Assembly: GCF_028641065.1 (NCBI RefSeq)
Contig: NC_073398.1
Span: 21,514,001 to 21,578,000, forward strand
From: Leucoraja erinacea
Lineage: Eukaryota
Length of the DNA: 64,000 nucleotides
Direction: 5' to 3'
Under the pieces are notes generated by a model. That model was not told where the DNA came from. It saw nothing but the letters and a program-made list of their open reading frames with translations, and ran no database searches. Each line of letters starts with the position of its first letter. Positions within the stretch are counted from its first letter, which is position 1. The translations under genes were made by a program, and so were the position numbers. Shown here in pieces: positions 4,716 through 63,751 of the stretch.

Positions 4716-6714
4716 ATTTATCAAGAGGGGGCAATCATCTTTGGCCCTTGTGTGAATTGAGAATTTAGGGGAATTAAATAGAATGGAAATGAAATGTGTT
4801 AGGGGACAGGTGAATGTAAAGGTCTGTGGATATGATGAGCCATGGAGGGTGGCACAGTAGTGCAGCTGGTAAAGCTGATGCCTCACAGCCCCAAAGACCC
4901 AGGTTCGATCCTGACAAGAGGTGCTGCCTGTGTGGAGTTTGCAAATTCTCCCTGTGACCGCATGGATTTTATGACCAAAAGCATAGGTCATAAAATATCT
5001 TTATTCTCCACGGAAGGACGTGTGATCTAATAATAAAATCCAATATTTTAGCAAAGGACATAAATTCTCTCAAAGGGAATTTGATAGCTGCTTTATGTGG
5101 GGACTGCTGTATGAAATGGGGACTGAGCATGACATGGGGGTTAGTCCAGTTGGCTCCTGTGGGATAAACAGCTTCCAAGAATTGGACTATTGTGACCTGA
5201 CACATTGAAATTACACAACACCAGCAGTGGAGTCTTGCAAATTCTCCCTGTGACCGCATGGATTTCTTCCGGGTGTTCCGGTTTCCTCCCACATTGCGGG
5301 ATTGTAGGTTAATTGGCCTGTGCAAATTGCCTGTAAGGCATAGGGAGTGCATGGAAAAAGTGAGATAACTGAACTGGTGTGAACAGGTCATCGACGGTCG
5401 GTGTGGACTTGTTGTGCCGAAGGGCCTGGTACCATGTTGTATCTGTTAATCAATTCAATATTTCCTGTCTGACTATTAAGTTATGGGGAAATGTGGGAAT
5501 GGACCATCCTAATCAGTTCCATCCCCCTGCCTTCTCTCCAAGTCCTGATTTTGCTTTTTAAAAAAAAATAACTGCTAATTTATTTTTGCATCAGCCATAA
5601 CTACAAAGAGATCAGTCACACTGTTATAAAAATACACAATATGTCCAAGAAGTCAATCTGCATCTGTAAAGAAATAAAAGGAAACACCATTTCATTCAGA
5701 GACCATTGACTTGAAACATAGACCCGTTTCGCTCTCCACAACTGCTACCAGAACTGTTGAATATTTCCAGTTTTCTGTTTTTATTTTTGTCTTCCAAAAG
5801 CATTTCTGCACCAATTTGGTTTTAGGCAGTCAGCTGTGTTCATTGTTCCTTTTGTCACCTGTAGTTGTTGCATTTCTGCTATTTCCATCAGTCTCTTGTA
5901 AGATGAAGTTGGCTAAAAACTAATTCCACACTGACAGCCTGAAGCTTGCTTTGTAGCCATGTCACCATGCTGTACGCAGTTTCTCAACTCCATTCCTCTG
6001 AAGTCAACAAAATTAGTTTTGGTAGTACTGAAGGCTGCTGAGATTGCTATGTAACTTTTATGAAGTATAGAGCGTTGAGGTTACTATGAAACACATCCAC
6101 CATGGGAGTGAATGTTGTGGCAATTGTAATCTTGCGAGAAGGAATTTACATTAAGCTGACATCCGACCCAAACACCACTGCTGAGAGTGCGGCAAGACTC
6201 CACTGCTGGTGTTGTGTAATTTCAATGTGTCAGGTCACAATAGTCCAATTCTTGGAAGCTGTTTATCCCACAAGAGCCATCTGGATTAACCCCCATGTCA
6301 TGCTCAGTCCCCATTTCATACAGCAGCCCCCACATAAAGCAGCTATCAAATTCCCTTTGAGAGAATTTATGTCCTTTGCTAAAATATTGGATTTTATTAT
6401 TAGATCACACGTCCTTCCGTGGAGAATAAAGATATTTTATGACCTATGCTTTTGGTCATAAAATCCATGCAGTCACAGGGAGAATTTGCAAACTCCACAC
6501 AGGCAGCACCTCTTGTCAGGATCGAACCTGGGTCTTTGGGGCTGTGAGGCATCAGCTTTACCAGCTGCACTACTGTGCCACCCTCCATGGCTCATCATAT
6601 CCACAGACCTTTACATTCACCTGTCCCCTAACACATTTCATTTCCATTCTACTTAATTCCCCTAAATTCTCAATTCACATAAGGGCCAAAGATGATTGGC
6701 CCCTCTTGTTAAAT
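4716..6714. repeat. Long inverted duplication: 523-bp arms at 4716-5238 and 6192-6714, 953-bp spacer
   Basis: The arms are reverse complements with about 9-10 substitutions by eye, and the ORF track shows mirrored peptides on opposite strands. Confidence 0.95.
4847..5460 (+). mobile_element. V-SINE interrupted by a ~265-bp insertion
   Basis: Head at 4847-4969, body resumes at ~5235; ~31-bp duplication ttgcaaattctccctgtgaccgcatggattt at both junctions. Confidence 0.85.
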
Positions 6715-7366: not shown

Positions 7367-7490
7367 AGAAAGAACTGCAGATGCTAGAAAAATCGAAGGT
7401 AGATAAAAATGCTGGAGAAACTCAGCGGGTGAGGCAGCATCTATGGAGCGTTTCAGGTCGAGACCCTTCGTCAGACTGAAGGAGGGTCTC
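7367..7490 (-). mobile_element. Short Penelope-LTR-derived element with hammerhead-like core
   Basis: TSD gtaagttca (7358-7366 / 7491-7499); minus strand reads CTGACGA-agggtctcgacct-GAAAC. Confidence 0.75.
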
Positions 7491-8315
7491 GTAAGTTCAT
7501 ACCCTTTTTCATTCTTCAAAAATCAACGGATTCTCTGTTTTGTTTGAACTGTGTAATCTGGCAACATTTTATTTGTGTTTAGTGATCCATGTATGTGCAC
7601 ACTTCCTCTCCCTTGCATTTAAAGTCTTGCTGTTTAAGGGGCAGTCACTTTCCTCCTTCTAACCTCCTGCTTTATGCCGCATGTCTGATGGTCCTGATGG
7701 GCCCATCGTCTGCTCATTGCAGTCCGTCACACGCTCGCACAGAACCTTAGGGAAGGGGCCTCAAGCTGGGTGCTGCTGAGGCCCTGTCCCCCAAAACTCC
7801 CTGACAACCTTGTGTGCACTAACAAATGATTAAAGACTATTAACATGAAACAATGTGGTTTGTATCCTATTTCAAACGAATGAATGCTCCGTTCCTTTGA
7901 CATAAACCCACCCACTGGATGCATCCATGTACCCTCTCCTCAGGGACAGTGACAGTGTGGGCAGCCGGGTGTGATAATGTCCTACCTCCAGCACAACTCC
8001 AATGCCACTTTTTACTGGAGCTGCATGGCAGTCCAATACGTTTTGAGACAAAGGCAGCCAATTGCGGGAGGTGTCCATCAGAATGGCTGCCTGTCTACCA
8101 GTAAGATTCAGCTCAAATGTTTTCTTGAAATTGGATTGAGCTAAACTGTGAACCAGAAACAGTTGGAGAGCAAGTGGAACTGAGTTAATCAGTTACAGAG
8201 GGACCAATGCCAAAGAAGAGTGGACACATAGATCAAAGGGATGGTGAGGGATCAAAACAGTGGAAGGTGATTAAGTGGATCACTGGAGGGATTGCTTTTC
8301 TCCAGAGATGCTGCC

Positions 8316-8547
8316 TAATGCCCCTGTCCCACTTAGGAAATCTGAACGGAAATGTCTGGAGACTTTGCGCCCCACCCAAGGTTTCCATGCGGTTCCCGGA
8401 GGTTGCAGGTGGTTGCCGGAGGTTGCAGGCAGTGGAAGCAGATAGGGAGACTGAAAAAACCTCCGGGAACCGCACGGAAACCTTGGGTGGGGCACAAAGT
8501 CTCCAGAGGTTTCCGTTCAGGTTTCCTAAGTGGGGGCAGGGGCATTA
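8316..8547. mobile_element. Palindromic MITE (~89-bp TIRs) nested in a Penelope-LTR remnant
   Basis: taatgcccctgtcccacttaggaaa...ggaggtt (8316-8404) mirrors 8458-8547; TAA/TTA ends; it splits gatgctgcc|cttgccgagtttctccagc. Confidence 0.85.
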
Positions 8548-11500
8548 CTTGCCGAGTTTCTCCAGCATTTTGTGTTTACCTTAAGAATATCGATCAGGAA
8601 ATTGGTAACATGGAAGGTAAAGGCAAGAACAGCTTTCAGGTGACAACAGTGACGATGTGGCAAGGTCAGATAGAGGTCCTCTCTCCAGTTTTATCTACGC
8701 CAAATGTGAAGCATTTTCATGCACTTCGTCCACAGGCTCAGAATTGAAACAAATACTTGAATGAACTGTTCCAATTTATCAACTGAAAAATGTATCAGTT
8801 GAGTTCTTTCTTCAATCCATCATGTTGAATAGACTTGCAGAAAAAGGGATTTCAGATTTTGAGGAAGAAGAGATTGACCAGCGAATACTGAAGAGTAAAT
8901 TTTCAACAGGATGCTAACGCTGTTAAAAGGAATATTGTTGGAATTTTTTTTTGGTTGTACCAGTCTCGTTCATTGTCATCTTGCATATCATCCAACAAAA
9001 TAGAACTGATATTGGTGAAATGAAAATAGTTCTGTATGTTTAAAAGTACATTTGCACGAATAGCAGTCATGTTGAAAACATCATCTATGTTGCTTTTAAT
9101 TATCTCAGGAATCTCCTTTCCAGCAACAAAATAATTAAAAGTAAACACTGAAATAATGGAAGGGAATTCTGGTTAGCAGTCATAAGGTCATGTGATAGAA
9201 ACAGAATTAGGCCATTCGACCCATCAAGTGTACTCTGCCATTCGAGAAAGGATGATTAGTGTGAGGAGTTGGTAGGTTTGTCTGGCCCTCTTTATGAAGG
9301 AACTACTTGCAATCTTCAGCCTCTTTTTGTTTTAGCATTTGTACCATTGTACCGGACAGAGTTTATCCTTCAAAACACACCATTTACTCTGCTAGCTCCT
9401 GTTTGAGACTTTCGACTGAACAAAATATAAACATGACTAAATATAACAGATGCCAGAAAAAATAATCCAGCTTCTTTTTATTATTGTTTATTTTTCTAGC
9501 ATTATCCATTGTGCATAATAATAGATTTTCTCATAATGCCTCTGAACTGTGTGTGGATTTGTGGCAGTTTGTAAATGCATGCCATTTATTTGACAGTAAG
9601 TGCTTAATCCGCGCCATTATGCACCTACATTCAGCTGTGCGGTGATGAAGAATTATAACAGGTTTCCTTCCCTTAATGTATGTTCATGTAAAGTAACCCC
9701 GTTATCCTTTGACACCATTGTGGAATAAATAAACAAAATTGGTAGGAGAAAAATCATGCTGATTTCATGTGCGCTGTGCTGAAATGTTATTTTGGCAGGT
9801 TGTCAGATCCTTTGTCTGTATCAGATGCAATAAGCTCACCTCGACACAGGAACATTTCCACTGATAACGTTGACAGGAGCCCATTCCATCAGAGTGGCTG
9901 GTGAGCTAGGCAGGCAGCTATGTTTAAATACACTTGGTTTAAAAATAGAGGCAGCACTAGATAATATCAAATATTTTTAATGTCCCTGGTTGAAATACAT
10001 TCTGATAACACAGTGAATCTTTTGACTTGCACAAACTAATTTTGTATATTTTCGAAACTGATGAAAGCTTTTTACTTAGGAACCAGGATTTTCATCATTC
10101 CATACAAGAGCACCTGGTGATAGAATCTCTTGTTAACACGAATACATTTTATTTTCAAATGCATTGTGCAGATCTTTTCATAACACGCTCATTTTGTGGA
10201 TTCTTATTTTCCCTCCTGCCTATTTTTGATGGAATTATAATCCCAGTATTGCATTCATCAATATTCTGGCATTATTTTTTCTATCACTGTTTGTGTTTAG
10301 AGTTGAAGAATTCTGTTCCCAAACATGACAATTGCCCATTGCCACCTAGGCTTAGTCCCTCTTAATTTCCACCTTTTCCAATATTTTGTTCATAACGGAA
10401 AGAAAACAACAGGCTACTGATCCCAACAACTTTGCCTATTAAACAGAAATACCAGATGAGGATGCCTAATAGTAATTTAAATTGGTATGATTTAATATAT
10501 TTCCCTTGATTATGATATTAATTACATTCTATCAAATCAGCTATTGCTAGGAACTGACTCTGTGCTGATGCCTGATGTTAGCCTTTCCTTTAGGGCAATG
10601 ACAGCAATTTGAGGCTCAGTAATTACCTGCAGGGAAAAAGCTTCAGGCCAAGTATCCATAAAATGCTGTGCATCTTCTATCAGCTTTTATTAAGAATACT
10701 GAGAAACTCTAGCAAATGAGGCTGCTAGCTGAATGTTGGGTTATGTTATAATTTTTTTTAGAAATGCTGATAAAACAAGCTACACTTGAGCATAAATCAG
10801 CCTCTGTTTTTGCCAATGTTATTGCATTGAGTGTGTTTTATCGAAGTGATCGGTAATCTTTGGGTGAACATTGCAAATTAAAATGTTCAATATTCTTTAT
10901 AATACAATATTGTAATAATAAGACTTGTGATAGCTGCATTTGCCTTAACCATTAGGATTTCCCCAACATTAGCTTTATCAAAACGACCTGCAGATTAATA
11001 GCTTTTGATTATTTGTGTTCCATCAGGAGATTATTGCGACTGACATCATCTTTAGTCTTATGATCCTTTGTAAAATACAAAAGTCTAATGAAAGATAGGT
11101 GGGCCGAAAGTCCTGTTTCTGAATTGTATCTCAAATCAAATAATTGAATGTTCAGCATCTGAGACGCACTGCTGAAGTTGTAGTGGAGACAGATCCGACT
11201 GTGGTATTGAAAAGGGAGCTGGATTTATATCTCAAACAACTTAATGTTCAGGGGTTATGAGCAGAGGGCAGAGGAGCAGGTCTCGTGAAATTGCTCATAC
11301 ATAGATCCAGAATGGACCCAATGAGCCAAATAACTTCTGAGAGTCTGTGCACTATTAAGCTCATGCCCTTCAATCAGTGCAACTCCATAAAAACAATAAA
11401 TTCCAATACAGTTAACTTTAACTATTTAAAGCGCTAGTTTGCTTTCAGATGAAACCATCAGGTACCTTTGTGATCTGAGAAATAATTTTTGCCACCTAAA

Positions 11501-17000: not shown

Positions 17001-18179
17001 CTCCTGATTTTAAAATTAGAGTTATTACTGCAGATTTCCAAGAATTTGGGAATACACATTTGTTTATGGACTTGTTGACGATGCTGGTAATTGGAGCAAT
17101 GAGTGACTGCTTATGAGCTTTAAGAAACATTATATCCATACCAAAAGCATTTTTGGCTGAGACACTTCATTCAAAATAAGAACCGGAGAAGCAGTGTTCA
17201 GTGGCATAGCATATCGGACTGCAGAACAGGAACTATGAGTCAAGTTCTTCACAGAATCTATAAAATACGTGTTAAGGGCTGTTGCAATCTCATTTGGATC
17301 ATTAGTCAGATTTTCATTTAGTTGCAACTCCCTAATGTTCTTGTTGGTGATATTATTTCCAGTTAATTTCCTTATGTTTGTCCAAATCTCCTTAGCATTA
17401 CCTCTTGCGTTGCTAATAACATTAATAAAAAAGTTTGCCTTAGCATTCCTAATTTCTTTAGTGACTTTATTTCTAAGTGAGGTAAATATTTGTCTATTAT
17501 GTGCTGCTTTTGTTTTCAGGGATATCTTAAGGGTATGGTCTCGCTGTTTCATCAGTGACCATATTTCACTATTTAACCAGGGAAGATGATTCTTTTTCCG
17601 TGGTTTTGGTTTTATCTTTTTCATAAAACAATTCATTGTTTCTTGAATAACATTACAATTTTCATCAACGTGTTCATGGTTAAGGTGATCAGACCAGTCA
17701 ATTTAATTCAAGGCATTTTCCAGGTTTTTTGTTTCACCCTTGGGTATTCTTAGTTGCTCAGACCTTTTACTGGAGTGACAGGTGAACCTATTTTTTGACA
17801 GTTTTCTTGAAAAGAGGATCAAATTATGGTCAGAGAGACCTGTAACCATATTGTATGTTTTTTGTATTCTGTCATATTTGTTGCTGAAGACCAAGTCTAT
17901 ACATGTTTCTGATGAGCTACTTATTCTAGTAGGTCCTGTAATTAAAGATCTGATTGAACTGTGAGAGATCAAAGCTATTTGTTATTGATTTTAATCTTTT
18001 CATCATTTTCACATTCTACTTTTTTTCTTTTTTGTTCTCTTTTTCTTTTCTTTTTTCATTTTTATAATTTAGGTTATAAGGTTAAAAATGAAGCTGTACA
18101 ATAATTGTATAATTTTAGATGCTGAATGTTTTATCTCTGTACAACTGCTACTAATAAATACATAAATAAATAAATAGAG
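14051..18179 (+). mobile_element. 5'-truncated L1-clade LINE (ORF2 C-terminus plus 3'UTR) hosting a nested LINE
   Basis: Frameshifted HLCKPK*IGGMALP...FRYLQIRDY...HRLYYSKSKLNKIFPNVSPSCDKC; (TAAA)n tail at ~18153-18175; TSD attgaaacaact 14039-14050 / attgatacaact 18180-18191. Confidence 0.9.
15446..17974 (-). mobile_element. 5'-truncated L2/Crack/CR1-group LINE with a near-intact reverse transcriptase region
   Basis: 385-aa ORF with AVFLDLRKAFDTV, GVPQGSILGPLLFSLYINDL, YADD; upstream frameshifted pieces NYRPISILP and CIDLVF...SDHNLI (APE end); candidate TSD ctatt 15441-15445 / 17975-17979. Confidence 0.92.
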
Positions 18180-23811: not shown

Positions 23812-23932
23812 GGAAGATAGGCACAAAATGCTGGAGTAACACTGCGGGTCAGACAGCATCTCTGGAGAAAAGGAATAGGTGATGTTTTGGGTCGAGACCC
23901 TTCTTCAGACTAACACTGTGTAACTAACTAAC
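23812..23932 (-). mobile_element. Short Penelope-LTR-derived element
   Basis: TSD-like tagtaaacac 23802-23811 / 23933-23942; hammerhead core with GAAA mutated to AAAA. Confidence 0.7.
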
Positions 23933-25097
23933 TAGTAAACACTGTGCAGTTTGCTCTTATCTTACTGCAAGATGAGAGTACTGTTATTCATTTTTGATTT
24001 GCTCTTTTACTTCTTGATATTTTCAAATTTCACTAATTTTTCTGGGCTCATCAACCTTTTTTGTTGCGTGCAACCACAGTGGAAAGACTATACATGATTA
24101 CAAACAAGCTGTCTACCATACTCAGATACAGGATGAAGGGAATAATGATTAGTGCAAGATAAAGTCCAGTAAAATCCAATTAAAGATAGTCTGAGGGTCT
24201 CCTATGAGGTAGATGGCAGCTCAGTGCTGCTCTCGATTTTGGGATGGGGTGGTTCATTTGCCTGATAACAGCTGGGAAGAAATTAAATCTGGAGGTATGC
24301 GTTTTCACACTTTTTGTAAACTAGCATCTACAGTTCCGTGTTTCTTTTCATTGGTTCTCCTTGAATCCAGAAGGCTGATGGTTTGGGGATGGGAAGTGCT
24401 TTCTCATGGGGAAATAACTTTATCCACAGACAATAATGCTTTGCCGAAGTTGCATTCGATAAAACAGAGTGGCTGTTTGCACAGATTACTGACCATTTTT
24501 CTTAACCTGGTCAATGCCAGGACTAACCAAGCCATTTGTGTAAGTGGTTTCCACTTATATTGCAAAGGAACAATTAGTAGAAAATAAACTTTGAGCAGGA
24601 CTGTGAATAAAGCATCAGTTTGATTTGGAGTAAAAAACCCTTTGCATTTCAGATTTAGATTTTAGTCAGTCAGCTTATTGTTTAATTTGAAGCTGTCATC
24701 CAATCATTTTAACGGTATTTATCCCAGGCGATTCTGATTAGAAAAATAGAAAGATAGTACAAAGTGCCTGGAAAACGAGCAGTCATTTAACACAAGCTGC
24801 TGTTCTGTCATTATTTAGCTCTTCCCAGATGTGATGTTATGTTATGTTTGCTGTATCTGTGTATCAGTTGGATGTATGCCGATTCTAAAAGTGAACATGA
24901 ACTTGCAAACCTAGCAAACTGAAGACTTTTCCAGGAAACTAAATGTTTCAGAGAATCCTCTGTGATGTTGCATATATTGGGTCATCTGATGACTGGAAGC
25001 TTGATGTACATCTTGTCTTTGATACAAAATGTAAATAAATAAAGCCACATGGCCACTTTAATTGTAACCTTTGAGTGAGAGCCAGCAGCATTTTAGT

Positions 25098-25188
25098 AAG
25101 ATAGACACACAGTGCTGGAGTAAATCAGGGGGACAGGCAGCATCTCTGGATAGAAGGAATAGGTGACGTTTCGGGTCGAGACCCTTCT
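25098..25188 (-). mobile_element. Truncated Penelope-LTR-derived element
   Basis: aagatagacacacagtgctggagtaaatcagggggacaggcagcatc...gacgtttcgggtcgagacccttct. Confidence 0.7.
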
Positions 25189-32160: not shown

Positions 32161-33384
32161 GTAGTAATATTAAAGTGTAATTTACTACGTCGAGCTTGCT
32201 TGCTACTTTGTCAAACATGCTTCAAGTAAAAGATACAAGCTGGAAATTCTCAGCAGGTCCAGGCAACATCTGTGGAGAGAACCCCTTGATGACTTTTTGT
32301 GAAATGTCCTCCTGTTTCCTCCTGCACATACGCTGCTTGCCCTGCAAACTATCTGCAGCATTTTATGTTTTATGTTATAATTGGACAAAGAATAATTTGT
32401 TGGTAAATAATGTTGGAAAGTTTTCATAAAGTTTTCATTCATTCATTCATTCATAAATTATTTGGTAGTGAAATTGTGTAGTGAGAATTTTCAATTATCT
32501 TTGAAATATCCAAGAATAGCAAAAACTGACCAGAGCCAAGAGTTTGCTTTTATTTTGTCATCAATGATTTATCTATGCTCACCTTCTTCCATCCCTGTTA
32601 GTTATGAAGAATGATATTGCTTCAGACCTGAGTGAATGCACGAGAGTTCAGACACACTCAATCTAGTTAGGTTGCTGGTAGAAGATCCATTTACTCCTGT
32701 GGCCTGAGATTCTGAAATGCGTAGTTGGTAAATCTGAGTTAAATCCTTAAGTTAACGAGCCTTCAGCTCATCAATGCACACATGTTAGCATTTATGACAA
32801 TTATTTTGGAGGTCAATTATTTTGGAAAATAATGTTGGGAGCTGCTTTGCCAATGTACATTAACCAATCTTGTTTCTTGCTTAATGCCAAAAGCAGTGCT
32901 CATGAAATCCAGCTGTACCTCGTGCCAAATGAAGGCCTGTTTTACTCGTGCCATAGACTAGGTTTATTCAAGGCTGTAACAGTATGCACTGTAAACACTC
33001 TGAGAGAACCCAGTGTTTCAATGATCCGTAGCACTTGTATATACACATAACACAATGGTTACAAGTGGATCTTACATTTTTGAAATTATTCATCGTTGAT
33101 CAATGTCTCTGTACCCTTTCATCTTAACCTTAACCTCCTGTTCCCTGTTATTTAAAAAACCATTCTCCCATTTGTCTAACAAATGAATGCAATAAAATAC
33201 ACAATTTCCTGATCAGTTTTATTGCTCTCAGCCTGGTTTACAACCCCCGATAGTTTAACTTCAGCAAGCTATGCCTTGGAATCTAAATGTACTCACAAAT
33301 CTTTCTAGCCACTGCCAATGATCCTGAAATTCCCTTCACTAGGTTGCTCTTTTCTCATCATGCTTCCCCAAAATTTAAGCTCTG

Positions 33385-33475
33385 GACTCAGTAGGTCAGG
33401 CAGCATCTCTGGGGAAAAGGAATAGGTGTCGTTTTGGGTCGAGACCCTTCATCAGACTGAGAGACAGGGAGGGGG
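33385..33475 (-). mobile_element. Penelope-LTR remnant
   Basis: actcagtaggtcaggcagcatctctggggaaaaggaatagg...gggtcgagacccttcatcagact. Confidence 0.7.
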
Positions 33476-35149: not shown

Positions 35150-35452
35150 TGATGTGAACACTTTACACTTGCACAATCTAGTAATTGTATTGCCATAGAC
35201 TTGCCATAATAATGGCCCGCATGTTAGTTTAGTTTAGAGATACGTCATGGAAGCAGGCCCTTTGGCCCACTGAATCCACTCCAATCGTTGCTCAGCTGCT
35301 CTCACTCGTCTGTTATCCCATTTTGTTCCCACTCCATATGCACATGGGTCAATTTTATACAGAGGCCAATTAACCTACAAACTCGCACCCATCTTTGGGA
35401 TGTGGGATGTAACTGATGTGAGTTAGCCTGAAAATAACTCGTTATTGTTTGA

Positions 35453-35637
35453 GGAGGGAACTGCAGATGCTGGTTTAAACAGAAGATAGTCAAAAAGTGC
35501 TGGAGTAACTCAGCGGGACAGGCAGCATCACTGGAGAGAAGGAATGGGTGACGTTTCGGGTCGGGACCCTTCTTCAGACTGATGTCAGGGGAATGTTGCA
35601 TGTCCCGCTGAGTTACACTAGCACTTTGTGACTATCT
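35453..35637 (-). mobile_element. Short Penelope-LTR-derived element with a partial inverted LTR copy and an intact minimal hammerhead core
   Basis: 14-bp TSD tcgttattgtttga 35439-35452 / 35638-35651; inverted halves; minus-strand core at 35548-35579. Confidence 0.82.
35548..35579 (-). ncRNA. Putative minimal type I hammerhead ribozyme motif
   Basis: GU-CUGAAGA-A-GGGU(CCCG)ACCC-GAAA-CG-UC-AC: full core, stem II and palindromic ACGU helix III, but only 2 bp of immediate stem I. Confidence 0.6.
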
Positions 35638-35797
35638 TCGTTATTGTTTGATTTGTGTTGTAATATCAAAATTATTGTTAGTCCAAGAAAGAAAGTTTGA
35701 CACATGATTATTGCAGTTTTATGCCAAGGGTATTTCACAAAGGTGGGGATTTCAAAATGTTTAAACTATGATATTTTGGTTTCATAAGTGTTCATCT

Positions 35798-36107
35798 AGT
35801 GGCACAGGGCGCAGCGGTAAAGTTGCTGCATTACAGCGCCAGGGACCCAGGTTCAATCCTGACTATGGGTGCTGTCTGTACTGAGTTTGTACTTTTCCCT
35901 GTGACCTTGTGGGTTTTCTCTGGGTGCTCTTGTTTCCTTCTGTGCTCCAAAGACCTACGGGTTTGTAGGTTAATTGGCTTCAATAAAATTGTAAATTGTC
36001 CCTAGTGTGCAGTTTAGTTCCAGTATACAGGATGATCAATGGTCGGCGCAGTAGGCCAAAGGGATTGTTCCTGTGCTGTATCTCTAAAGTCTAAACTAAA
36101 GTCTAAA
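35798..36107 (+). mobile_element. HE1-like V-SINE
   Basis: tRNA head, B box ggttcaatcc, V-domain, tail ctaaagtctaaactaaag. Confidence 0.85.
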
Positions 36108-37267: not shown

Positions 37268-38566
37268 CTAGACCAAGTGCAGACCCGCTGGGTCTGTTCC
37301 CCCAACGCACGGTTGGGTGGGGTGGGATGGGGGAGGGGGGTGCTGCGGCTTCACACGCGCACTAACCACCCCACACACACACACGGGGTAGAGGGGGGTG
37401 AGAAGTGGGTAGTGGGAGAAGCATTGGGGAGATGGGAGGGGAGACCGCTGGGTGAGGGAGAGAGAGAGAGGGGGGGGAGTGAGAGATGGGGGAGAGCGAG
37501 AAGGGGGGAGAGAGAGAATGGGGAGAGAGAGAATGAAGGGGGGAGTGGGGGAACGGCTTGGGAGGGAAGGGGAGGGAGGGGGAGGGGGAGGGGAGGGAGG
37601 GGGAGGGAAGGGGAGGAGAGAGAGAGAGATTATAGGGGAGAGAGAGATTAGGGGGAAAGAGAGAGAGAGTAAAGAGGGGGGGAGAGAGAGGAGGGGGTGA
37701 GTGAGGGAGGGAGGGAGGGGAGGGGGGGGGGAGAGGGAGGGGAGAAGAGAGGATGCAGAGGGGGGAGAAGGGGGAGAGATGAGGGTGGATAGGGGGGGTG
37801 GAGAGGGGGAGGAGAATAGGAGGTGGAGGGGAGGAGGAGGGGGGGGTAGGGAAGGGGTGAGAGGAGGGAGGAGAGAGGGTGGTGGAGGTGGGGGGGGGGG
37901 GAGAGGGGAGGGGGAGAGGGCTGAGGTGGAGAGAGATTGGAGAGGGAGAGAGTAGAGGGGGGAGAGGGAAGAAGGGGAGGGAGAGGAGGGGCAAGAGAGA
38001 GGGGGAGGGGAGAGAGAAGGGGAGAGAGGAGGGGGAGAGTGGAGAGAGGGGGTGAAAGGAGAGACAGAGGGAGAAAGAGAGGGGAGGGGGGGGGGGAGAG
38101 AGAGAGAGTAGAGGTGATCGAGATGAGGGGGGAGTGAAGGGGTGTATGAGGGGGGGGGGGAGGTGGGCAGGGGAGAGGAGAGGAGGGGCAGAAAAGAGGG
38201 GGTTGGGGGGGAGAGAGAGAAGAGGAGGGAGGGGGAGGAGGGGGGAGAGAGGTGGAGGGGGGAGAGATGAGGAGGGGGGGGAGAGCTGGAGGGGAGAAGA
38301 CAGAGAAGGGGATGGGAGGGTGGAGGAGGGGAGGATAGGAGGGGGAGTGGTGGGGGGTGAAGAGAGAGGGTGGTAGAGAGGGAGGGGGTAGATAGGGAGG
38401 GGGGTAGGACAACTTGTTCTATTTGATTTTATTTGATTGTGCACACCGTTTCAAAACAAAACGTGGAGGAGGAAAAACTACAGGAATTTGTAAAAATGTC
38501 TCCGTTACTTCAAAGGGTGGAGGAGTAAATCCACAAATGCCTTAAATGAATTGGCATTAGTATAGA
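37268..38566 (-). mobile_element. Complete non-autonomous Helitron (1299 bp)
   Basis: Minus strand: 5' TCTATACTAATG ... 3' hairpin CAGACCC-agc-GGGTCTG, 8 nt, CTAG; inserted between host A(37267) and T(38567); no TSD. Confidence 0.85.
37385..38408 (+). repeat. ~1-kb G/A-rich low-complexity polypurine tract inside the Helitron
   Basis: Almost only G and A on + strand with many runs of three or more G. Confidence 0.97.
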
Positions 38567-39454
38567 TGTGTCCTCATTGATTAGCAAGGAACTCAGCAGG
38601 TCAAACAGCATTTCAGGGGGCGAAAGAAATGGTCAACGTTTTGGGTTGAAACCCTGCATCAGGATGCCGACACCACAGATGCTGCTCGACCCACACAGTT
38701 TCCCCAGCATATTATTTGTTAACTCAGTGTGATTATTCCCAATTGTAAATTAGGTATTTTTTCCCTCTAATTTGAACACTAAGCTGTGTGTTTTTTTTTA
38801 ATGCTGGCAGTGTATCCAATTGCATAAATACCCTGTTCTTGTGTGTGGACACTTTGTGATCCCATTATGCGGGGTGATTACTTTATAAGAGTCTGGAAGA
38901 AGCTTAAAGACTCAACATGTGTGGAGACGATGCCTTCTCCAATCTAAATACATGTGTACCGGTATCACAAGAATTGGATCTCTGCTTGTATCCATGTTTT
39001 TGAAGGCCTTTGTTGACCCTTAGTAAACTTTAGTTAACTTGGAGCTCCAAAATGAATTCCGATGAACACTCATGCAATTTTGTTGGTTGAAGGCCTTCAT
39101 CCGTAGTGCTGCGCGTGCATGGCACAACAAACCATGATTCAAGGAGTAGTGAGTTTATCCATCACCTGTACCGAGCAAGTTGAATCCATTGCATCTGAGT
39201 TGGAGATGATGCAGACTCCAGGAATTTAAGTGACAAACCCACAGAAGTACAACAAAGAAACAGAATCTTCTTGGAGTTCAAATCCAGAACCAAACAATCT
39301 AGGCGTGATTTAAAAAAAAAACTGTAAAGAGGGTAAAAAGCTCGTTAGGTACTAGGTTATATTAGTCATTAATTTCTTGCTGTGCAGGAGAGTCTAAAGG
39401 TGTGTATGCATTTTAATCATGCCTGTAATTCTCAGTCCAATAGAAGAGGTTAAA

Positions 39455-39622
39455 AATAGGCACAAAAAGCTGGACAGGCAGCATCTCTGGAGAGAAGGAA
39501 TGGGTGACGTTTCGGGTCAAGACCCTTCTTCAGACTGGTGCAACCCAAAACGTCACCCATTCCTTCTCCACATTTTGTTTGTATCTTCGGTTTAAAACAG
39601 CATCTGCCATTCCTTCCTACAC
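39455..39622 (-). mobile_element. Short palindromic Penelope-LTR-derived element with an intact minimal hammerhead core (39504-39535)
   Basis: TSD agaagag(g/c)ttaaa 39442-39454 / 39623-39635; minus strand CUGAAGA-A-GGGU(CUUG)ACCC-GAAACGUC. Confidence 0.78.
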
Positions 39623-40465: not shown

Positions 40466-41089
40466 CGGCCTGACCTCCTGATAATTCCATCATCTTTGGG
40501 TTTTTTTAATTTTGAATTTCCAGTATTTTTGGTTACCATCATTGTTGCTGTAGGTCTGTTGCCAACATTGTGTGAGTGTGGATTACCCATTTAATTTCCC
40601 CTCCGTTGTGTTGGGGGTGGCAGAGGATGGTGGTTGCATTTGCCTACGGGCTCATTACTGAGCAAGGATTTGGTGGGTGTAAAAGACACCACTATTTAAT
40701 GAATAATGAATATAGAACTCCAACCACTAGAACTATTTTTTTTATGTACTAACAATGTAAATTAGTAGCAATTCCCTTGTAGCTGGTAAGCAGGGTAGAC
40801 ATCTGCTAACCAGATGTTCAAACTGCTGCGTGTGGACTCATTTATTTTGCAGTTTGCTTCTAAACATACAGTTCAACCACTTCTCAGTTGTCCTCAACAA
40901 ATTTCCTGAACTCGCATATGGCATCATGCACAAATGTTGCTAATTTACTTGACCTACCTCTTGATGAAGAATAGACAAAGAATGTAGTCCAAAGGATTTG
41001 TCTCATTGCCTCAACTGTGCTCTTCTCCCAGTGACCTTAGTTTAATTTAGTTTAGTTTAGAGATACAGCATGGAAACAGGCCTTTCGGA

Positions 41090-44000: not shown

Positions 44001-44351
44001 AATCATATGATCATCTTCAGAAAGAATTCAGTTTGTCAGGGATGGACTTTTTTAGATTTCTCCAAATACAGCACTACCTGCAGACACACGTAGATTGGGA
44101 GCAGATTTGTAAATTACCTTCTAATTTGGAAAAGATCGTCCTGTTGACTATGGAGGGAGAAATACAAAAGAATCTGATATCCCACATATAAAGGACTTCA
44201 AGATTATGTAAAAGGAAACACTATAAAAACGAAACAGAAATGGGAATTGGAAATGAATATTATTATTACTGACGAAATGTGGGAAAAGACATGTCTTTTG
44301 GGTCATAAGTTAACAAACAGCCCTGGCTGGAGTTTGAATGGAAAACTAGAA
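41090..44351 (+). mobile_element. Internally deleted L1-clade LINE (ORF1, EN start, partial RT, C-terminal piece) inside a minus-strand V-SINE
   Basis: ORF1 coiled coil with DLENRARRKNLRIYG; ORF2 YNVHGLNHPIKR...LIQETHL, KSPGTDRIPGEFYK, SLDAQKAFDRVDW, GIRQGD; SINE tail at 41037-41088 and SINE head at 44352-44523 flank it. Confidence 0.9.
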
Positions 44352-45364
44352 TAAACCTACAAATCTTGATGATTTGGGGATATGAGAGGAAACCTCAGAG
44401 AAAACCAATGTGGTCATAGGGAGAACATTCAAACTCTGCACAGACAGCACCCATAGTCAGGATTGATCCTGGGTCTCTGGCGCTGTAAGGCAGCAACTCT
44501 ACTGCTGCGCGACTGTGCCACCCTTTCCCTAACTGCTGATTTGCCTGTTCTTTCCACTAACGCATTTGCTTTCTCACATTTTCTTAACTGGTTCAGAAGA
44601 AGAATTATTGACTTGAAACATCCACCCTGTTTTTCTCTCTGCTGGTTGTGCCCGACTTACTGAGCACTACCAGTGTTCTTTGTTTTTGTCTTGTAATTAG
44701 TATTTTCTGGATTAAGGAGTCACTGGAACATCTTGATAATGACAACTGACAATTGGTAGATAAGAAATAGAATCACAAGAGATTTCAGATGCTGGGATCT
44801 TGTACAAAACACAAAGCGTTGGAGAAACTCAGTGGGTCCGGCAGTAACTGGGAAGGGAATGAACAGATGCTGTTTCGGGTCTGTCTGTTCATCTTCCTTC
44901 ACAGTTGCTGCTTGATCCACTGAGTTCCTCCAGCGCTGTTTTTGTACACTTTGTACAATGAAATTAAAAAAGTGTTTGAAATCCATTGCAGGACTACTGA
45001 CTGAAAATAGGAAGAAGTGGATAATGTACTAGGATATTAACTTACTTTCACCATTTGTAGATATTTGCAAACAAACCCTGTGTTTTCATGATTTTCTGTT
45101 ATTAACTCCAGATTGCTAGCATTTGCAAGGGGAAGGACTTATATTCTCTATAACTGTTGAAATCATATACGATAATTATGGAACACGACTATATCTTTTG
45201 AGATCAAATTAACACTTATTGCTTCATATATAGTTACAAATACAGGAAAATTAGATTTCAATAACCAGAGCATTTAATAACGTTGATAAATTAAAAGGAA
45301 GTTAATTGTAAGATAAAGTGCTGCTTTGATGTTTGTGACAGGTGTGTGATGTATAAAGTTAACG

Positions 45365-45529
45365 NNNNNNNNNNNNNNNNNNNNNNNNNNNNNNNNNNNN
45401 NNNNNNNNNNNNNNNNNNNNNNNNNNNNNNNNNNNNNNNNNNNNNNNNNNNNNNNNNNNNNNNNNNNNNNNNNNNNNNNNNNNNNNNNNNNNNNNNNNNN
45501 NNNNNNNNNNNNNNNNNNNNNNNNNNNNN
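45365..45529. other. Assembly gap (165 N)
   Basis: Run of N. Confidence 1.
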
Positions 45530-47574: not shown

Positions 47575-47705
47575 TCAGGGTGAAGAAGGGTCCTGACCTG
47601 AAACCACCTATCCACAGTCTCTAGATATTCTGACTGACCCGCTGAGGTATTCCACCACTTTGTGTCGCTTTTGTAAACCAGCATCTGCAGTTCCTTGTTT
47701 CTACA
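47575..47705 (+). mobile_element. Penelope-LTR remnant, degenerate hammerhead core
   Basis: gtgaagaagggtcctgacctgaaaccacc...gacccgctgagg...ccagcatctgcagttcct. Confidence 0.7.
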
Positions 47706-51451: not shown

Positions 51452-52897
51452 TGAGAACCTTCTAGCTCAGGCTTTTAAGAAGACAGTGACTTGTAATGAA
51501 ATCATTAAAATGGTAGCATGCTAGATATTTATTGATTTTGGTTATTTGACACTCACCACTTGCTATTCAGATCAATAACTATTGTGTGACTGTGATAACC
51601 CTTTGACACTAAAATATTTTTTTTGTAACATTGGAACATAATTGTAATACAACAACATGAGATTACATTTTTATTGTGCTTTACTTGAGGGTATAACCTG
51701 GTGATTTGATTTAGATTTGTGCCAAATACTCTTAACCACACAATGATTAATATAAGTATCAGGGGTCATAGAGACCATTTAGATTTAAATAGCCAAGATT
51801 AGGTTCCATTTTTATTTGAACAGGTATTTAGTTGGCTGCAAAAAGAAAATGACCACATTTGCACCTTTACTTTGAATTGGCCTTCATCTGTCAAAATTAT
51901 TTAATGCAACTTCTGTGTAATTGCCTATTAGCCTAGTTTGATGCTGGGTGGAATTTTGGAAGCAGGGCAATAATGTGATCTTGTTCTCGTAAAATATCCA
52001 GCTGAACGTGCTGAGTTAATTGTGAAGATGACTGTATTATGTATAAGCCGCGATTATTAATAATGTGGCACCTCTGTAATGATAATAGTTTAACCTATTT
52101 AGAAATGTATGCTCTACTTGTTTCTAACTGGTTCTTTTTCCAATTAATCTTATCAGAATAGTACCTTCTGATATATTTTGGATATTCTCAATTAACCACT
52201 CTGTGCTATATTGTATAATATCAAGGCAAACATGATAAATGATATGTGCAGAATATAAAGATGAATGGAACTTAACACTTTTGTGGAAGTTTTATTCTGC
52301 GTAAATAATAGGAATATGAGTTATAAGGAATAAAAGGTTTTAACTATTGTACTGATGTGAAGAAAGTAAATCTGTGGAGATCAGTGCAAATCTGTGCATA
52401 TCTCACAACAGTGTTGTTGTGTTACAATGTGGAAGCCAGGAGTCCTCTGGGTGTCAAATGCTGACTCCCCTGATATTTTGCTGGAGGTTATTTGAATCAG
52501 ATTGCTAACTTGGAAATAAAAGGTAAGTAGACAGAACATTATTAAGTATATTTTGAAATAATAAATTTATATTTTTTATCAATGATTTTTAAATTATCTA
52601 ACTTAGTTTCAACTGTGTTTTGATGTCTCTTGTCAAAGGAGACATTTAGGAAGAGTTGAAAAGGTCTTTGATAAAGACCATCAGGCCACTCTGGAAACAA
52701 GGCCACGTGATCCACCAACTGAGATTGAGTCAGTGCTTGCGAGCACTCGGCTTAGCGAGGATAGACACAGCAGTGAAACCTGTATGTTGTTTGCACAGCC
52801 AGAGCAGGTTAATGTGGCCGCTGAGATAACATGGGGAGTGAGTTCAAGGGATGAGACTGGTCCTGAACTGGACAGAAATGAACATGGGTGAATACAA

Positions 52898-53485
52898 AGA
52901 TAGACACAAAGTGCTGGAGTAACTCAGCGAGTCAGGCAGCATCTCTAGAGAAAATGGATAGGTAGCGTTTCTGGTCGGGACCTTTCATCAGAGTGAATGT
53001 AGTGGGGGGGGGGGGGGGACTGGAAGTAAGACAAAAAGCAGCACAATTTGGGGCCGACAACAGCTGACCTCAGGCAAAGGAGGTTCCCTGATAGGCTGAT
53101 TGTTTGCTAGTGACAGTCTGAGCTCAAGAGAGATATATAGTTGTGAACTGTACAACTGGTTAAAGGAGAAAGATCGGGTGAAGGAGGAGGTGTTTGTAGT
53201 AGTTACCTAAAGTTGGAGAATTTAACTTTCATACTGTTGGGTCGCAAGCTACCCTAACAAAATATGAGGTTCTGTTCTAATTTGTGTGTGGCCTCATTCT
53301 GGCAATGGAGGAGGCCCAAGACTCTGTGGGAATTGGAAGGGGAGTTAAAGTGGTTAGCAACCGGAAGATCCAGTAGGCCTTGGTGGACCAATGCAAGTAT
53401 TCAACAAAATGGTAATCAAGTCGACACTTTGCCTCGCCGATGTACAGGCCCTAATGGGAACACCGGATACAGTAGGTAAATCGAT
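52898..53485 (-). mobile_element. Penelope-like element 3' fragment: GIY-YIG endonuclease remnant followed by the LTR
   Basis: Minus-strand translation with frameshifts: GLYIGEAKCRLDYHFVEY...DLPVANHFNSPSNSH...LGLLHCQNEATHKLEQNLIFC*GSLRPNSMKVKFSNFR*, then the same LTR as the short repeats (52898-52995). Confidence 0.88.
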
Positions 53486-56400
53486 GCAAATACATTGGAA
53501 AAAACTGAGTACAAACTTTGTGGAAATGACATTGTACGAAGACATTTAAAAAAAAAAGCCAGTTTTTCCCCCCCATTTGGTAAAATTCCCAACAGAAATG
53601 TTGAAGTGTTTCTGCAGTTTTGCCAGTTTGCTTGTCATGCTACATGTCAGAGAGGCTGCTGAAGGAAACTCCTTCCAGAGTTAAGTGTACAGTAAACACA
53701 TCTGACTGTCATTAACTAGCAAACTAATAGTGGAGCGAGGTAACTGGAATTATGTACTGACTTGAAAGCTTCAATTTTATTTTTTCACTAGAAATTTATT
53801 CATATACCTAAATTAATCCAGTTCATATCATACAAGGAGGTGAGCATGCCTGAGTGTGTGAAATACTTAATAGAAAGATTGCTTTTCCTAAGAGAGTAAT
53901 AATTAGGGATTGAAATTTGCCAAACTTAAAGGTAAATAATATATCATCACAAAAGTAAGTTTCACAAATAATTCCACTGCTGTGATTGATATCAGGCATT
54001 GATACTTGGGAGATAGAAAAAAAAACACTTTAATACTACTTCAGAAGCCCATGGATGCACGAAGAATTGGTAAAGGTCCATCTCTGTCAGGGAAGGACTT
54101 ATCCCTTTTATGCCACCTTGCTCCAAACTCATCGGTGAAAAATTAATATTGGGAAGCACGGCTAAAAAACGCTGAACAAACATCAGCTGTGTGCACTGGA
54201 GAATTCTGCCCATAAATTCTGAATCTTATTGAGTGGCTTATTAGATAGTCATTATTCTGGCTTATGCAGTCAACCGTAATTTCACCTGCTTGTCTGATTT
54301 TGTTTTGCTCACCTTAGGAAGTTAATAAATCTTTCATCGTTGCAATTTATAACACCACTTGTGTGGCGTCTAAAGTGTGGAATTGTTTCTCATCATTCCG
54401 GTCCTCAGACATCACCACCCTTTCAGTTTTGAAGTCCCCGTGTAATTGTTACCAGAGCAACAGCACCTCTTTCAATCTCAACGAAAATTAAACTGTCAAG
54501 GCTGCTTCTACAGCTACATTTATCTGAAATGTTGCCAATTCATCCAACACTTTCCTCCAGCTTCATATGGATTTGTCATGCATTTAATACAGTAGGCAAA
54601 CTGAAATGTTCAAGCTTAAATCCTAGACAGTGCTCATTCTTTAATCTTCTTTGTCAAATTGCTGCAGATATGAGGACAAGCTTTTTAATCAAATATCCTC
54701 CTGTCCTATTTTCTCACACCCTGTTTTCACATTTCCATATCAGAGGTTTATACAACATCCTGAAATCACAATCCTTCAGCCGCTGTAAAATGACATTCCA
54801 CTGGAATATATACTTTATGGTAAATCTATTGATAAGCAAACTCAGCACAAATTATTTCAATGTGTCCTATGTATGAACCACCATCACTTATGGTCTGTTT
54901 GCAAAACATTTGACAGCATGAAACATTTTTTAAAATAATTGGTCACCAGTGATTTTTCAGCAGAAATCTCTCTCAGTACACTTGTGTGGTCATTAAACAT
55001 TTAAATATTTTGAATATTTTAGTTTCAAATTTTATTTGGCAAATATTAAATTGCTATAATTATATGATATTATTTTATATTTATGCATATATAAAATATG
55101 TTATTATTATTATTATTTCACATTTGTCATACACGTAGTTGGAATTTGCCTGGTATTTGTTCATGTGCTCCTGAAGAGTTTAATTTAAATAGGCATTAAT
55201 TTTGCAAGCAGTGGCAAAGTGACTGCACCCGCTGCTAAAATCACAGATCTCGTGATTGCTACGGCACCAATTTCTCTTTCCCCCAACTGTAATTATGATG
55301 CCATGAAGCCGACCGTGTGATTAAATATGTTGAAGATTTTGCACAGGCAGCACAGCAGGAAGGAAAAAGCACAATATTTGACTCACACTTTGAGCACTTT
55401 GAGTGTGTAAAATAAAAAAATGAACGTGCACGTTAGATTAAGGTACAACTCTCATTCTTTAAGATTATATAATTATAATCTGTGAAATAAATTTGATGGA
55501 ATGCTAATCTGCATAGACATGAAATTAATTTCTTGGGAGCAAGACAAAATTGCCAAGCAGTATATCAGTAAAAATCCCAGCTCATGCAAGAAAACATAAC
55601 TTTTTCAGGCTAATTGACAGGGACCATTGCTAAATACCGGGACACTGATTGCAGTGGGGACTGTTGAAGAAGAGCTAGTCTACAGAGAAACACTTCATTG
55701 CTGACAGCAGCTTTGGGATTTCTGGGTTGAACTCCACATACACACAGTCCCCCGAACTTGCTGTCAGTTCCACGGTGTCATGACGGCACATTATTCCGAA
55801 TGTAAAATGTGAGCCAATTATATTTTCATCATTTTCAAGTTAGGTCTGAATTATAGGGAGTTAATGAGCAGTTCAAATTGGGTCCAATTACATATTCAAC
55901 ATTTAATCTAAACTGTTTCTGTCAGTATAAACAAAACCTGTGACATTCTGCCAAGACCTCTCATTCTTTGAATATATTTATACTTTTAGAATTGTGTTCA
56001 AGTTTGGAGCTCAGTGCACTGCACTGGGGTATGGTATAGGGCATGGTCTGATTGTTGATGGTTGCAATACCTTTTATTTAAGGATAAGCTGAATAATGAA
56101 TATTTGAATAATGCAAGCTTCAGGCAACGGCAGTAATTCATGTGTCCTTTATGTTAAATGGGGATGATCAGCCATGGTCACACTGAATGGCGGTGCTGGC
56201 TCGAAGGGCCGAATGGCCTGCTGCTGCACCTTTTGTCTATTGTTATAAAAATAATAAATAAATACATTCACTGGGAGTTCTGGTTCTTGCAACCATTAAA
56301 AGTGTTTAAAATGTGCTCATTGGCTTTTACAATGGAAATTTAAACAGTTAAAAAGAATCAGCAATCCAGATTGAGAAGCAGATGAATTGAAGGGGAGGAC

Positions 56401-60825: not shown

Positions 60826-61936
60826 GGCTTGTCCATTTTAAAATAATGTAATTAGTAATGGAATGGGTACATTTCTTCTGTATGGAGAACAAAATTAACG
60901 ATTTTGTAATCTGCATTTCCAGACCATATTTCCAAACTCATTTACCATGCTACTATCCTTGAAATTTAAGAAATGTAGCTATGAAAAGTTAGTATAAAGG
61001 CTTGTGCCAATATTTCTTTGTCAGATATTCATCACGATGTCATACTCATTTGCAGTCCAAAGCACTTGCACGAAATTTGGTGCAAGTTGATGCAAAAGAG
61101 CAAGGGCATGTGGAACTTAAATGCTATCACCTGAAATGCTTTGAATCCTTCCATTTAATGTGATATCTTCTATTGATTTAGTTTGTTTTTGATGTGCTGT
61201 TTGTGTTGGCTTTCTGTAGGTGTTCCTTTGAAGTACTTGCATGGGTGTGTTGTGCAAGATGGCAATATAAGCTTGCTGCCTGTTGTTGATACCTTTTTGA
61301 TGTTATCATTGATTAACTGAAGTACAGTGGAAGATGCTGAGGAATCTGCAATACATTTCTGATAATGCACTGGAGGCTCCTGCCATGGAACTCACTCATT
61401 TAGGAATTTCATATTAACTAAAAAATAAACTGTAATGGGCATTAAATTCATTTACCAATAGATGATTGCAAGTGGCTGCAAACATCTCGTGATATTCAGT
61501 CCATTTGGAGTTGAATGTGTAAAAGTGAATAAAACATTTATCCAACACTCACTTCATGTCAAAGCCAGTAGCCAAACGCACATTTTAACCTCTATGTATT
61601 TCCAAATCTAGTTTTCACTATTCTTTCCCCACTCCAGTTGCCATGGAAAGGTTGGAGGCTCCTCTTCCCGAGACTAAATTTTAGGCATGAAAACTTATGA
61701 AGACACAAGAGGCCGCAGATGCTGGAATCTTGAGCAAAAACAAACTGCTGGAAGAAATCAGCGGGTGAGGCAGCATGTGTGGAGGGAAATGGACAGATGA
61801 CGTTTCGGGTCTCGTGGAGTGTCCAGACTGACCTGAAATGTTGTCTGCCTGTACCAAAACCTGTGCCTCAAAAATCTCACTAAATATTTCAACATGTAAT
61901 CCAGTTGAAACCCCCTGAAAGATGGACTTCTTAAAT

Positions 61937-63616: not shown

Positions 63617-63751
63617 GTGTAGGAAGGAACTGCAGATGCTGGTTTAAACTGAAGATAGACACACAATGCTGGAGTAACTCAGTGGGTCAGGCAGCATCTC
63701 TCAATAGGTAATGTTTCAGGCCGAGTGCTCTCTTCAGACTGTTTAATAGAT
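63617..63751 (-). mobile_element. Short Penelope-LTR-derived element
   Basis: TSD agctttgct 63608-63616 / 63752-63760; degenerate hammerhead core. Confidence 0.72.

Follow-up and report, generated by a model that had tools for sequence, protein, structure and literature searches.

Locus and census of the repeat family

The insertion at 35453..35637 comprises, on the two strands, a tailed sense arm and a head-to-head inverted arm, and is flanked by the left (35439..35452) and right (35638..35651) plus-strand copies of a 14-bp target-site duplication. The sense arm (35453..35592, minus strand) contains 15 nt upstream of a hammerhead core, the hammerhead, approximately 68 nt of downstream sequence and the optional 3' tail of the family (35453..35481, minus strand; approximately 30-36 nt across copies), which is present in this arm only. 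Its minimal type I core (35550..35577, minus strand) is intact, with C3 at 35577, a 4-bp stem II and an ACGU palindrome; the predicted cut lies between 35550 and 35549, and a 2-bp stem I is formed by 35578-79 with 35548-49. The motif TCAGT (35578..35582, minus strand), which forms a small palindrome together with the first bases of the core, stands at the point where the 5' ends of the family cluster. The inverted arm (35593..35637, plus strand; 47 nt, 89% complementary to the sense arm) begins at the tail-less 3' end, and both arms have in common a variant 3'-end spelling that is absent from the other aligned copies, which fits a single event drawing on a single source.

The window, that is, the whole 64,000-nt stretch of DNA analysed here, is animal DNA of 40% GC with two assembly gaps (runs of N at 3597-3760 and 45365-45529). 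A repeat profile trained on 12 of its copies gave 22 matches at 16 loci and none in five reversed or shuffled control sequences, and recovered all 11 copies listed in an earlier sequence-only reading of this DNA, so that the recurrence of the short repeat is upheld; a 17th locus is a weakly matching, tail-only fragment (24317..24337, plus strand; blastn E=0.015). The same reading gave the elements a size of 120-190 bp, which agrees with the duplication-bounded inserts (121-185 bp), but these lengths include inverted arms and filler, and the sense unit itself measures approximately 100 nt, or approximately 135 nt with the tail. Copies of the main subfamily are 5-17% off the majority sequence and show CpG decay. 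The window repeats are decayed copies of a Penelope terminal module, and they look like neutral fossils. Their hammerhead, tail, inversions and duplications belong to the known anatomy of Penelope elements, and it is the clustering of their 5' ends that is unusual.

A plus-strand exon at 19187-19360 matches calcium channel alpha-2/delta-1 (E=3e-24). Relative to this exon 12 of the 17 repeat loci are antisense and five are sense, none of the five with an intact core, a sample too small to be interpreted. Elsewhere in the window there are minus-strand LINE-like reverse transcriptase frames (15674-17981, one of 406 residues), plus-strand fragments that we take to resemble ORF1 and ORF2 of the L1/Tx1 type (41047-44010 and 14104-15269), and approximately 950 bp of low-complexity G/A-rich sequence with a strong GC skew (37456-38407). 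A presumably tRNA-SINE-like repeat with A- and B-box-like motifs (35798-35900) lies 160 bp from the 35453 insertion.

The parent element and its endonuclease

The parentage of the repeat is indicated by its sole long copy, at 52898, the pLTR of which (52897..53202, minus strand) has a decayed hammerhead at 52991-52964 and a tail-less 3' end. Upstream, this copy has approximately 210 nt of pLTR and then a stop codon (53205-53203) and a broken GIY-YIG endonuclease C-terminus (53206..53486, minus strand), which carries a frameshift near 53376 and two TAG stops and within which the copy is truncated. The Pfam GIY-YIG match of the remnant is weak when taken alone (E=0.13). The C-terminal piece has 39 protein matches at E<=0.001, the best at 1.3e-12, and both pieces align with the same proteins at 45-68% identity; a word-index protein search with the 57-residue piece returned no match, whereas the full search did. 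Three of eight matching proteins hit GIY-YIG below the curated cut-off, and names are attached to nine of ten relatives looked up, which come without exception from skates, rays or whale shark, so that the host is likely to be a cartilaginous fish. Because the 52898 repeat follows this remnant directly, the Penelope pLTR identity and the sense strand assigned in the sequence-only reading are well founded, and the repeat is, judged by its sequence, the end of an endonuclease-positive Penelope-like element. Consistent with that, a GIY-YIG domain with two cysteines within its motif before the pLTR, an optional tail, an inverted copy and a duplication of variable length are all found.

A linker of the CxxxxCxxC type precedes the GIY-YIG motif in two of the seven homologues listed (P0011 and P0028), in a region that lies outside the 52898 remnant. 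Since a cysteine linker before the endonuclease (CX2-5CxxC) is described as a feature of Neptune and Nematis (PMC8557442), the parent is likely to have been of the Neptune type. The annotated proteins P0014, P0011 and P0028 of skates and rays, a neuromedin-U receptor model among them, end in this Penelope endonuclease remnant, and these ends are either exonised fragments or annotation errors. In other hosts, the loci L017, L122, L020 and L014 carry a Neptune-like endonuclease end, and the same minimal hammerhead lies 72-104 nt beyond it.

Structure of the insertions

The remaining copies differ in tail, arms and state of the core. Tails are present at 7367..7490 (minus strand), in which a 16-nt palindrome folds back about 7475, the base adjoining C3; at 47577..47702 (plus strand), in which the core is broken; at 61705..61847 (minus strand), a divergent-subfamily copy with an 18-nt inverted piece that stops 3 nt short of C3; and, in full, at 63617..63751 (minus strand). 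The copies at 23812..23932 (minus strand, CpG-damaged core, target-like filler) and 25098..25188 (minus strand, starting inside the core, without duplication) are tail-less. Head-to-head copies comprise 39455..39622 (both strands), which has an intact core (39506-39533) and a tail on the inverted arm only; the divergent copy at 38588..38717 (both strands); an old copy without hammerhead at 32231..32370 (both strands); and a divergent-subfamily copy lacking the first half of the core at 44772..44945 (both strands; locus 44806). The copy at 33385..33475 (minus strand) has approximately 20 nt of pyrimidine-rich upstream sequence, is truncated at its 3' side and is unbounded at its 5' end, and old decayed copies lie at 44596..44690 and 5705..5784 (both plus strand). 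The hammerhead-less copy at 8291..8582 (plus strand) is split by a 232-bp inverted-repeat element at 8316-8547, with 77-nt arms that are 94% complementary and with TAA/TTA flanks, which we take to resemble a PIF/Harbinger-type MITE.

Flanking duplications of 8-14 bp were found at six of the 16 loci examined, with lengths of 14 bp at 35453, 13 bp with one mismatch at 39455, 10 bp at 23812, 9 bp at both 7367 and 63617, and 8 bp at 47575. In random windows, an exact repeat of at least 9 bp occurred by chance in 8/298 cases and one of at least 8 bp in 27/298. All five of the copies to which 9-14 bp repeats had been ascribed were thus found again, and the reading of the copies as separate insertions is supported; the statement that each has its own duplication does not hold, 10 of the 16 loci being without one. 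Apparent duplications at 8290, 38590 and 44806 were discarded, their best repeats falling within element sequence.

Inverted arms occur in seven of the 17 loci, so that the earlier mention of two head-to-head copies was right in kind but too low in number. The head-to-head halves are clear at 35453, 39455, 44806 and 7367; those at 38590 and 32231 were recognised from opposite-strand profile matches and that at 61736 by eye (14/18 nt). Only one arm is tailed in all three clear head-to-head pairs (35453, 39455 and 44806), as described for Penelope pairs (PMC8557442).

At their 3' side, copies stop either approximately 96 nt or 130-135 nt after C3, the second class being 30-36 nt longer, and reads of two DNA and two RNA runs, all four alike, include both tail-bearing and unrelated loose ends at this position. 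The two length classes are the known optional tail of Penelope, a 30-40 bp sequence (PMC8557442, PMC3846280) that has been linked to two neighbouring sites at which reverse transcription starts internally (PMC11167929).

The hammerhead motif

The hammerhead string that the sequence-only reading had reported for the copies at 35548 and 39504 is present and intact on the minus strand at 35550-35577 and 39506-39533. A search for this string allowing up to three mismatches returned four matches in the window and none in 100 shuffles; an Rfam scan gave 11 matches at E<=5, all below gathering scores and none to a hammerhead family. A family-specific pattern had no match in viral or metagenome contigs, and none of the listed carriers of the stretch is recorded as RNA, which speaks neither way. 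The core boxes, the G10.1-C11.1 pair and the palindromic 15.2-16.2 positions that were found agree with the assignment to a minimal type I hammerhead in which A9 is followed by an additional base and helix III is palindromic, and the caveat that stem I is only 2 bp is true of the window copies. The metazoan Penelope hammerheads described in PMC4209133 likewise have an extra base between 9 and 10.1, G10.1-C11.1 and a palindromic 15.2-16.2, and are likewise mostly single dispersed motifs, thousands of which per genome have been attributed to truncated elements (PMC4209133). Stem I of the window copies is as short as the 2-bp helix I of D. virilis Penelope and stem II has 4 bp, whereas the schistosome type has 4-5 and 7-8 bp, respectively (PMC4209133).

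The core is intact in two of 13 aligned copies and broken or missing in the other 11, and CpG columns agree with the majority in only 74-79% of cells. Whether the core is better conserved than the rest depends on the copies taken: over all 13, it matches the majority slightly better (117/130 vs 850/1039, p=0.019), whereas over the nine main copies the difference falls short (88/93 vs 644/727, p=0.11), and the expectation of a better-conserved core thus stands for the larger set only. Majority letters of the reads (run X24) restore C17 in 89%, U16.1 in 91%, G10.1 in 88% and C11.1 in 69%. In the divergent 38590 copy, as a single case, both stem I pairs are compensatorily swapped, to C-G and U-A in place of U-A and G-C. 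We read the counts for the core and the rest as constraint on the source elements with decay of the copies.

A general hammerhead pattern matched at least 121 metagenome and at least five viral loci. For the 44 motif-family representatives among the matches listed, stem I, the bases of which lay outside the search pattern, had a mean of 2.2 bp against 0.66 bp after shuffling (maximum of 2000 shuffles, 1.27); it was exactly 2 bp in 8/44 of these families and shorter in 18/44.

The hammerhead monomer folds no better than shuffled sequences (z between -0.43 and +0.21), and an extended stem I was sought by folding and not found. In a folding model that leaves out the tertiary energy of the core, the active dimer is predicted to lie 14-17 kcal/mol above two folded monomers, as compared with approximately 7 kcal/mol for two control families with a 6-7-bp stem I. 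The hammerhead of an active parent would need dimerisation as well as help from protein. Metazoan Penelope minimal hammerheads have been described as having low activity even as dimers (PMC4209133), and the Anolis ribozyme as cleaving only with protein and being dispensable for insertion (PMC11167929).

Position of the 5' ends

The window copies have much in common with the 5'-truncated insertions described for the Neptune clade (PMC8557442, PMC3846280, PMC8969392), namely a C-terminal GIY-YIG domain followed by the pLTR, variable duplications of 8-14 bp, an adjacent inverted truncated copy, a tail of 30-40 bp on one arm and a palindromic inverted junction. They differ in that the Neptune-clade truncations are described as variable, whereas nearly all window copies represent only the last 100-135 nt, with 5' ends bunched at the edge of the hammerhead.

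Ten loci span C3, and eight of these begin no more than 15 nt upstream of it. The starts were read by eye with the duplication or the inverted arm as the outer bound, and a wider clustering window replaced an earlier one of 5 nt. At most 4 nt precede C3 at 7367, 15 nt at 35453, 10 nt at 38590, 9 nt at 39455, 3 nt at both 47575 and 61736, and 14 nt at 63617; at 23812 the element starts 3 nt before C3, past the filler, or 24 nt by the duplication alone. The other two of the ten are 33385, which reaches approximately 20 nt before C3, and 52898, which runs approximately 500 nt upstream. In the remaining seven loci, two starts have decayed too far to be placed, and the other five lie within the core or past it. 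None of the 17 loci starts at the predicted cut site, the nearest being 8290, approximately 4 nt after it.

Two unrelated metagenome families downstream of GIY-YIG frames served as controls, with 63 copies of which 17 cut by contig ends were set aside. The remaining 46 include 10 that start within 15 nt, 17 that start within 25 nt and 19 that extend at least 100 nt upstream, as compared with 8/10 window copies within 15 nt (Fisher p=0.0009) and 9/10 within 25 nt (p=0.004). The control families belong to other hosts; their copies were chosen for an intact core, some may be duplicates from re-assembly, and since 22% of them also start within 15 nt the contrast is one of degree. Inverted arms are present in 14/47 and 4/16 copies of these families (L007-L125).

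The cluster includes subfamilies that share only approximately 71% identity with the window majority, and this breadth speaks for an intrinsic end rather than for descent from one master copy. The fold-back of the 7367 copy pivots on the base adjoining C3, and the divergent 38590 copy has no TCAGT and yet starts within 10 nt of C3. The 5' cluster likely marks the start of an RNA and not a ribozyme cut. A search of literature listings and text passages gave no report of this family or of a clustering of 5' ends beside the hammerhead; the family or its clustering may already be recorded in Repbase, Dfam, subscription papers or supplements.

Abundance in sequencing reads

Reads were compared at 80% likeness with the reference interval 52840-53560 for two DNA runs (X1 and X3) and two RNA runs (X24 and X23), which gave 133,350 aligned DNA contigs for X1 and 119,099 for X3, and 42,543 aligned RNA reads out of 12.9 million for X24 and 30,428 out of 17.6 million for X23. 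Depth in X24 falls from approximately 40,000 on the 3' part to 9,834 at C17, 3,067 at core position 7, 92 at six bases before C3 and 2 at 37 bases before it, and is approximately 35 at the endonuclease C-terminus and up to approximately 530 inside the endonuclease, so that the short module exceeds the endonuclease end by approximately 75- to 1,100-fold in the reads. The depth over the core (at least 3,067) is undercounted, because clipped reads run on into an intact-looking stem II and GAAACGUC, and the upstream drop is exaggerated by the divergence of the reference copy and by an upstream pLTR that may occur in its own subfamily only. With summed contig depth left out of the estimate, the 17 loci per 64 kb point to a copy number that is likely of the order of 100,000 per genome.

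The two strands are about equally represented in X24, and reads mostly opposite to the element prevail in X23. Places where many molecules begin or end were not listed for any of the four runs, nor was there a pile-up of reads at the cut site; the lack of an RNA 5' end counts against a start at the ribozyme edge, although the library types are poor at showing starts. Discrete linear or circular monomer RNAs were not evident in the oligo-dT and single-cell libraries, which are unsuited to such RNAs. A clean junction at the cut site was absent from the 15 read joints listed, 298 further joints lying beyond the listing. Clips and joints at 52963, the first base past the predicted cut, do not count as signs of cleavage: the reference departs from the majority at 52964 and 52965, so that alignments stop at 52963 anyway. 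Nor do the 98% and 94% of reads that enter unlike sequence count as proof of host read-through, part of that sequence being tail or clipped hammerhead.

Models for the origin of the short copies

To our knowledge only one Penelope element has been reconstituted so far, and it could do without its ribozyme. Where both ends are fixed, as in the present family, the copies amount to a very large natural record of the copying reaction: the fixed ends speak for a template that was uncut at the ribozyme and for a defined RNA or cDNA end beside it.

In the model that appears to us on balance the probable one, the short copies arose by an internal start of reverse transcription approximately 100 or 135 nt from the 5' end of an RNA, with run-off at the upstream edge of the hammerhead. 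A single parent transcript would have the initiation site twice, close to the 5' end and again at the 3' end, because the end of the pLTR overlaps the start of the ORF in Penelope (PMC3846280). Reverse transcriptase would start internally at one of the two nearby sites that bound the tail, on a template beginning near the TCAGT motif, which may be a transcription start, and cDNA synthesis would run off the RNA end at the upstream edge of the ribozyme. If the RNA does begin at TCAGT, a product of 100 or 135 nt is expected, as observed, and the copies may be the genomic counterpart of the short run-off product formed in vitro on the upstream pLTR. Head-to-head inserts would then arise when both target strands prime synthesis or when the cDNA end folds back on itself, and the hammerhead would be a passenger in the short copies.

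These steps draw on what is described for the Penelope reverse transcriptase, which starts internally, extends both nicked target strands and uses an uncut RNA template, and for the Anolis enzyme in vitro, with which product length follows the RNA 5' end (PMC11167929). The latter element, PAc (Poseidon of Anolis carolinensis), likewise has two adjacent 3' ends bounding a tail, and the window copies can be likened to its in vitro reaction in the uncut hammerhead template, the extension of both target strands and the length set by the RNA 5' end; it belongs to another clade and host, its short product is biochemical whereas the window copies are known from sequence, and its main text reports no genomic copies ending at the hammerhead edge (PMC11167929). 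Truncation, inverted pLTRs and tails are in themselves established features of Penelope (PMC8969392, PMC6765202). An initiator-like TCACT occurs in a rotifer pLTR (PMC3846280), and D. virilis Penelope has an internal promoter with an initiator and a downstream element (PMC2377424). Its transcript starts approximately 120 nt upstream of the end of an intron that abuts the hammerhead (PMC4209133, PMC2377424), and a start at the ribozyme edge would therefore depart from the known layout. By the initiator consensus we take TCAGT at 35578..35582 to be initiator-like.

A rival model is a self-propagating SINE-like element of 100-135 nt, with its own internal promoter and recopied by the parent enzyme, so that short copies beget short copies. 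That the short module so vastly outnumbers the endonuclease end, with 133,350 contigs from one DNA run, agrees with such an element, as do the D. virilis internal promoter, a G at +24, counted from the A of TCAGT, together with CGTCAC at +28 to +33, which by the position rule we take to be partly like a downstream promoter element, the finding that pLTRs suffice in cis for mobilisation in trans (PMC3846280), and the existence of non-autonomous Chlamys elements (PMC8557442). Against it, a boundary common to several divergent subfamilies would require repeated origins, the reads contain no discrete small transcript and show either near-equal strands (X24) or mostly the opposite one (X23), and the main-subfamily copies are 5-17% diverged and CpG-decayed; we regard it as an unlikely, if serious, contender.

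Somewhat more doubtful is copying of a long RNA from the 3' pLTR with a preferential stop at the edge of stem I, whether by stalling at a protein-bound ribozyme fold, by fold-back of the cDNA at the small palindrome, by a splice-related block at an acceptor-like pyrimidine-rich site or by endonuclease trimming. The fold-back placed exactly at the edge in 7367, the palindrome self-priming proposed for Penelope (PMC3846280), the D. virilis intron that ends at the 5' end of helix I (PMC4209133), the pyrimidine-rich upstream sequence in the window, which ends in CAG, and the weaker near-hammerhead excess in the control families are all in keeping with such a stop. No strong RNA barrier is predicted, however, because the monomer is no more stably folded than its shuffled versions (z -0.43 to +0.21). 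A model with a spliced template was rejected, there being no upstream exon common to the short copies.

Random 5' truncation with a very short mean length, the cluster being an artefact of a small sample read by eye, we hold to be very improbable. Truncation at the 5' side is the rule for Penelope (10.64898/2026.07.22.740005, PMC8557442, PMC8969392), five of the 17 loci begin within the core or past it, and another reaches approximately 500 nt upstream. Yet the tenfold-corrected p of 8/17 is <=3e-4 under geometric truncation with mean lengths of 40-200 nt, and 19/46 control copies extend at least 100 nt upstream, so that the extreme 5' truncation entertained in the sequence-only reading fits poorly with 5' ends that are not continuously spread.

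Its other suggestion, a retrozyme-like family spreading by dimer self-cleavage, circularisation and reinsertion, is scarcely credible, for although retrozymes, reported to derive from pLTRs, occur with dispersed monomers in the one cartilaginous fish sampled (10.64898/2026.07.22.740005), the core is slightly closer to the majority than the rest, and non-LTR retrozymes are likewise small, non-coding, pLTR-related dispersed monomers with a type I hammerhead (PMC7229834, 10.64898/2026.07.22.740005), those retrozymes form head-to-tail units with a hammerhead each and circular RNA (PMC7229834, 10.64898/2026.07.22.740005), unlike the window copies, which are single or head-to-head and tailed, with no tandem at any of the 17 loci, a minimal rather than canonical hammerhead, cores broken or missing in 11/13, no copy beginning at the cut site, no clean cut-site junction among the read joints listed and a costly active dimer.

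A candidate subfamily with a 66-nt duplication

Among the reads aligned to 52905-52970, one RNA joint leads back 66 nt, with 973 reads from approximately 189 starts in X24 and 171 reads in X23; it lies away from the cut site and is absent from the DNA contig counts, in which neighbouring joints were counted. It suggests that a partial-tandem subfamily is expressed in which another AAACGUC follows the first hammerhead, and the duplication could supply helix III in cis. A bolder reading, which we offer as tentative and on the whole improbable, would see the short copies as an in vivo "strong-stop" product that turned into self-amplifying polymerase II elements of approximately 100-135 nt, likely of the order of 100,000 per genome, with transcription starting on stem I and the core acting as downstream promoter, and with the 66-nt-duplication subfamily, by virtue of a second ACGU palindrome in cis, forming the dimer-type helix within a single element.
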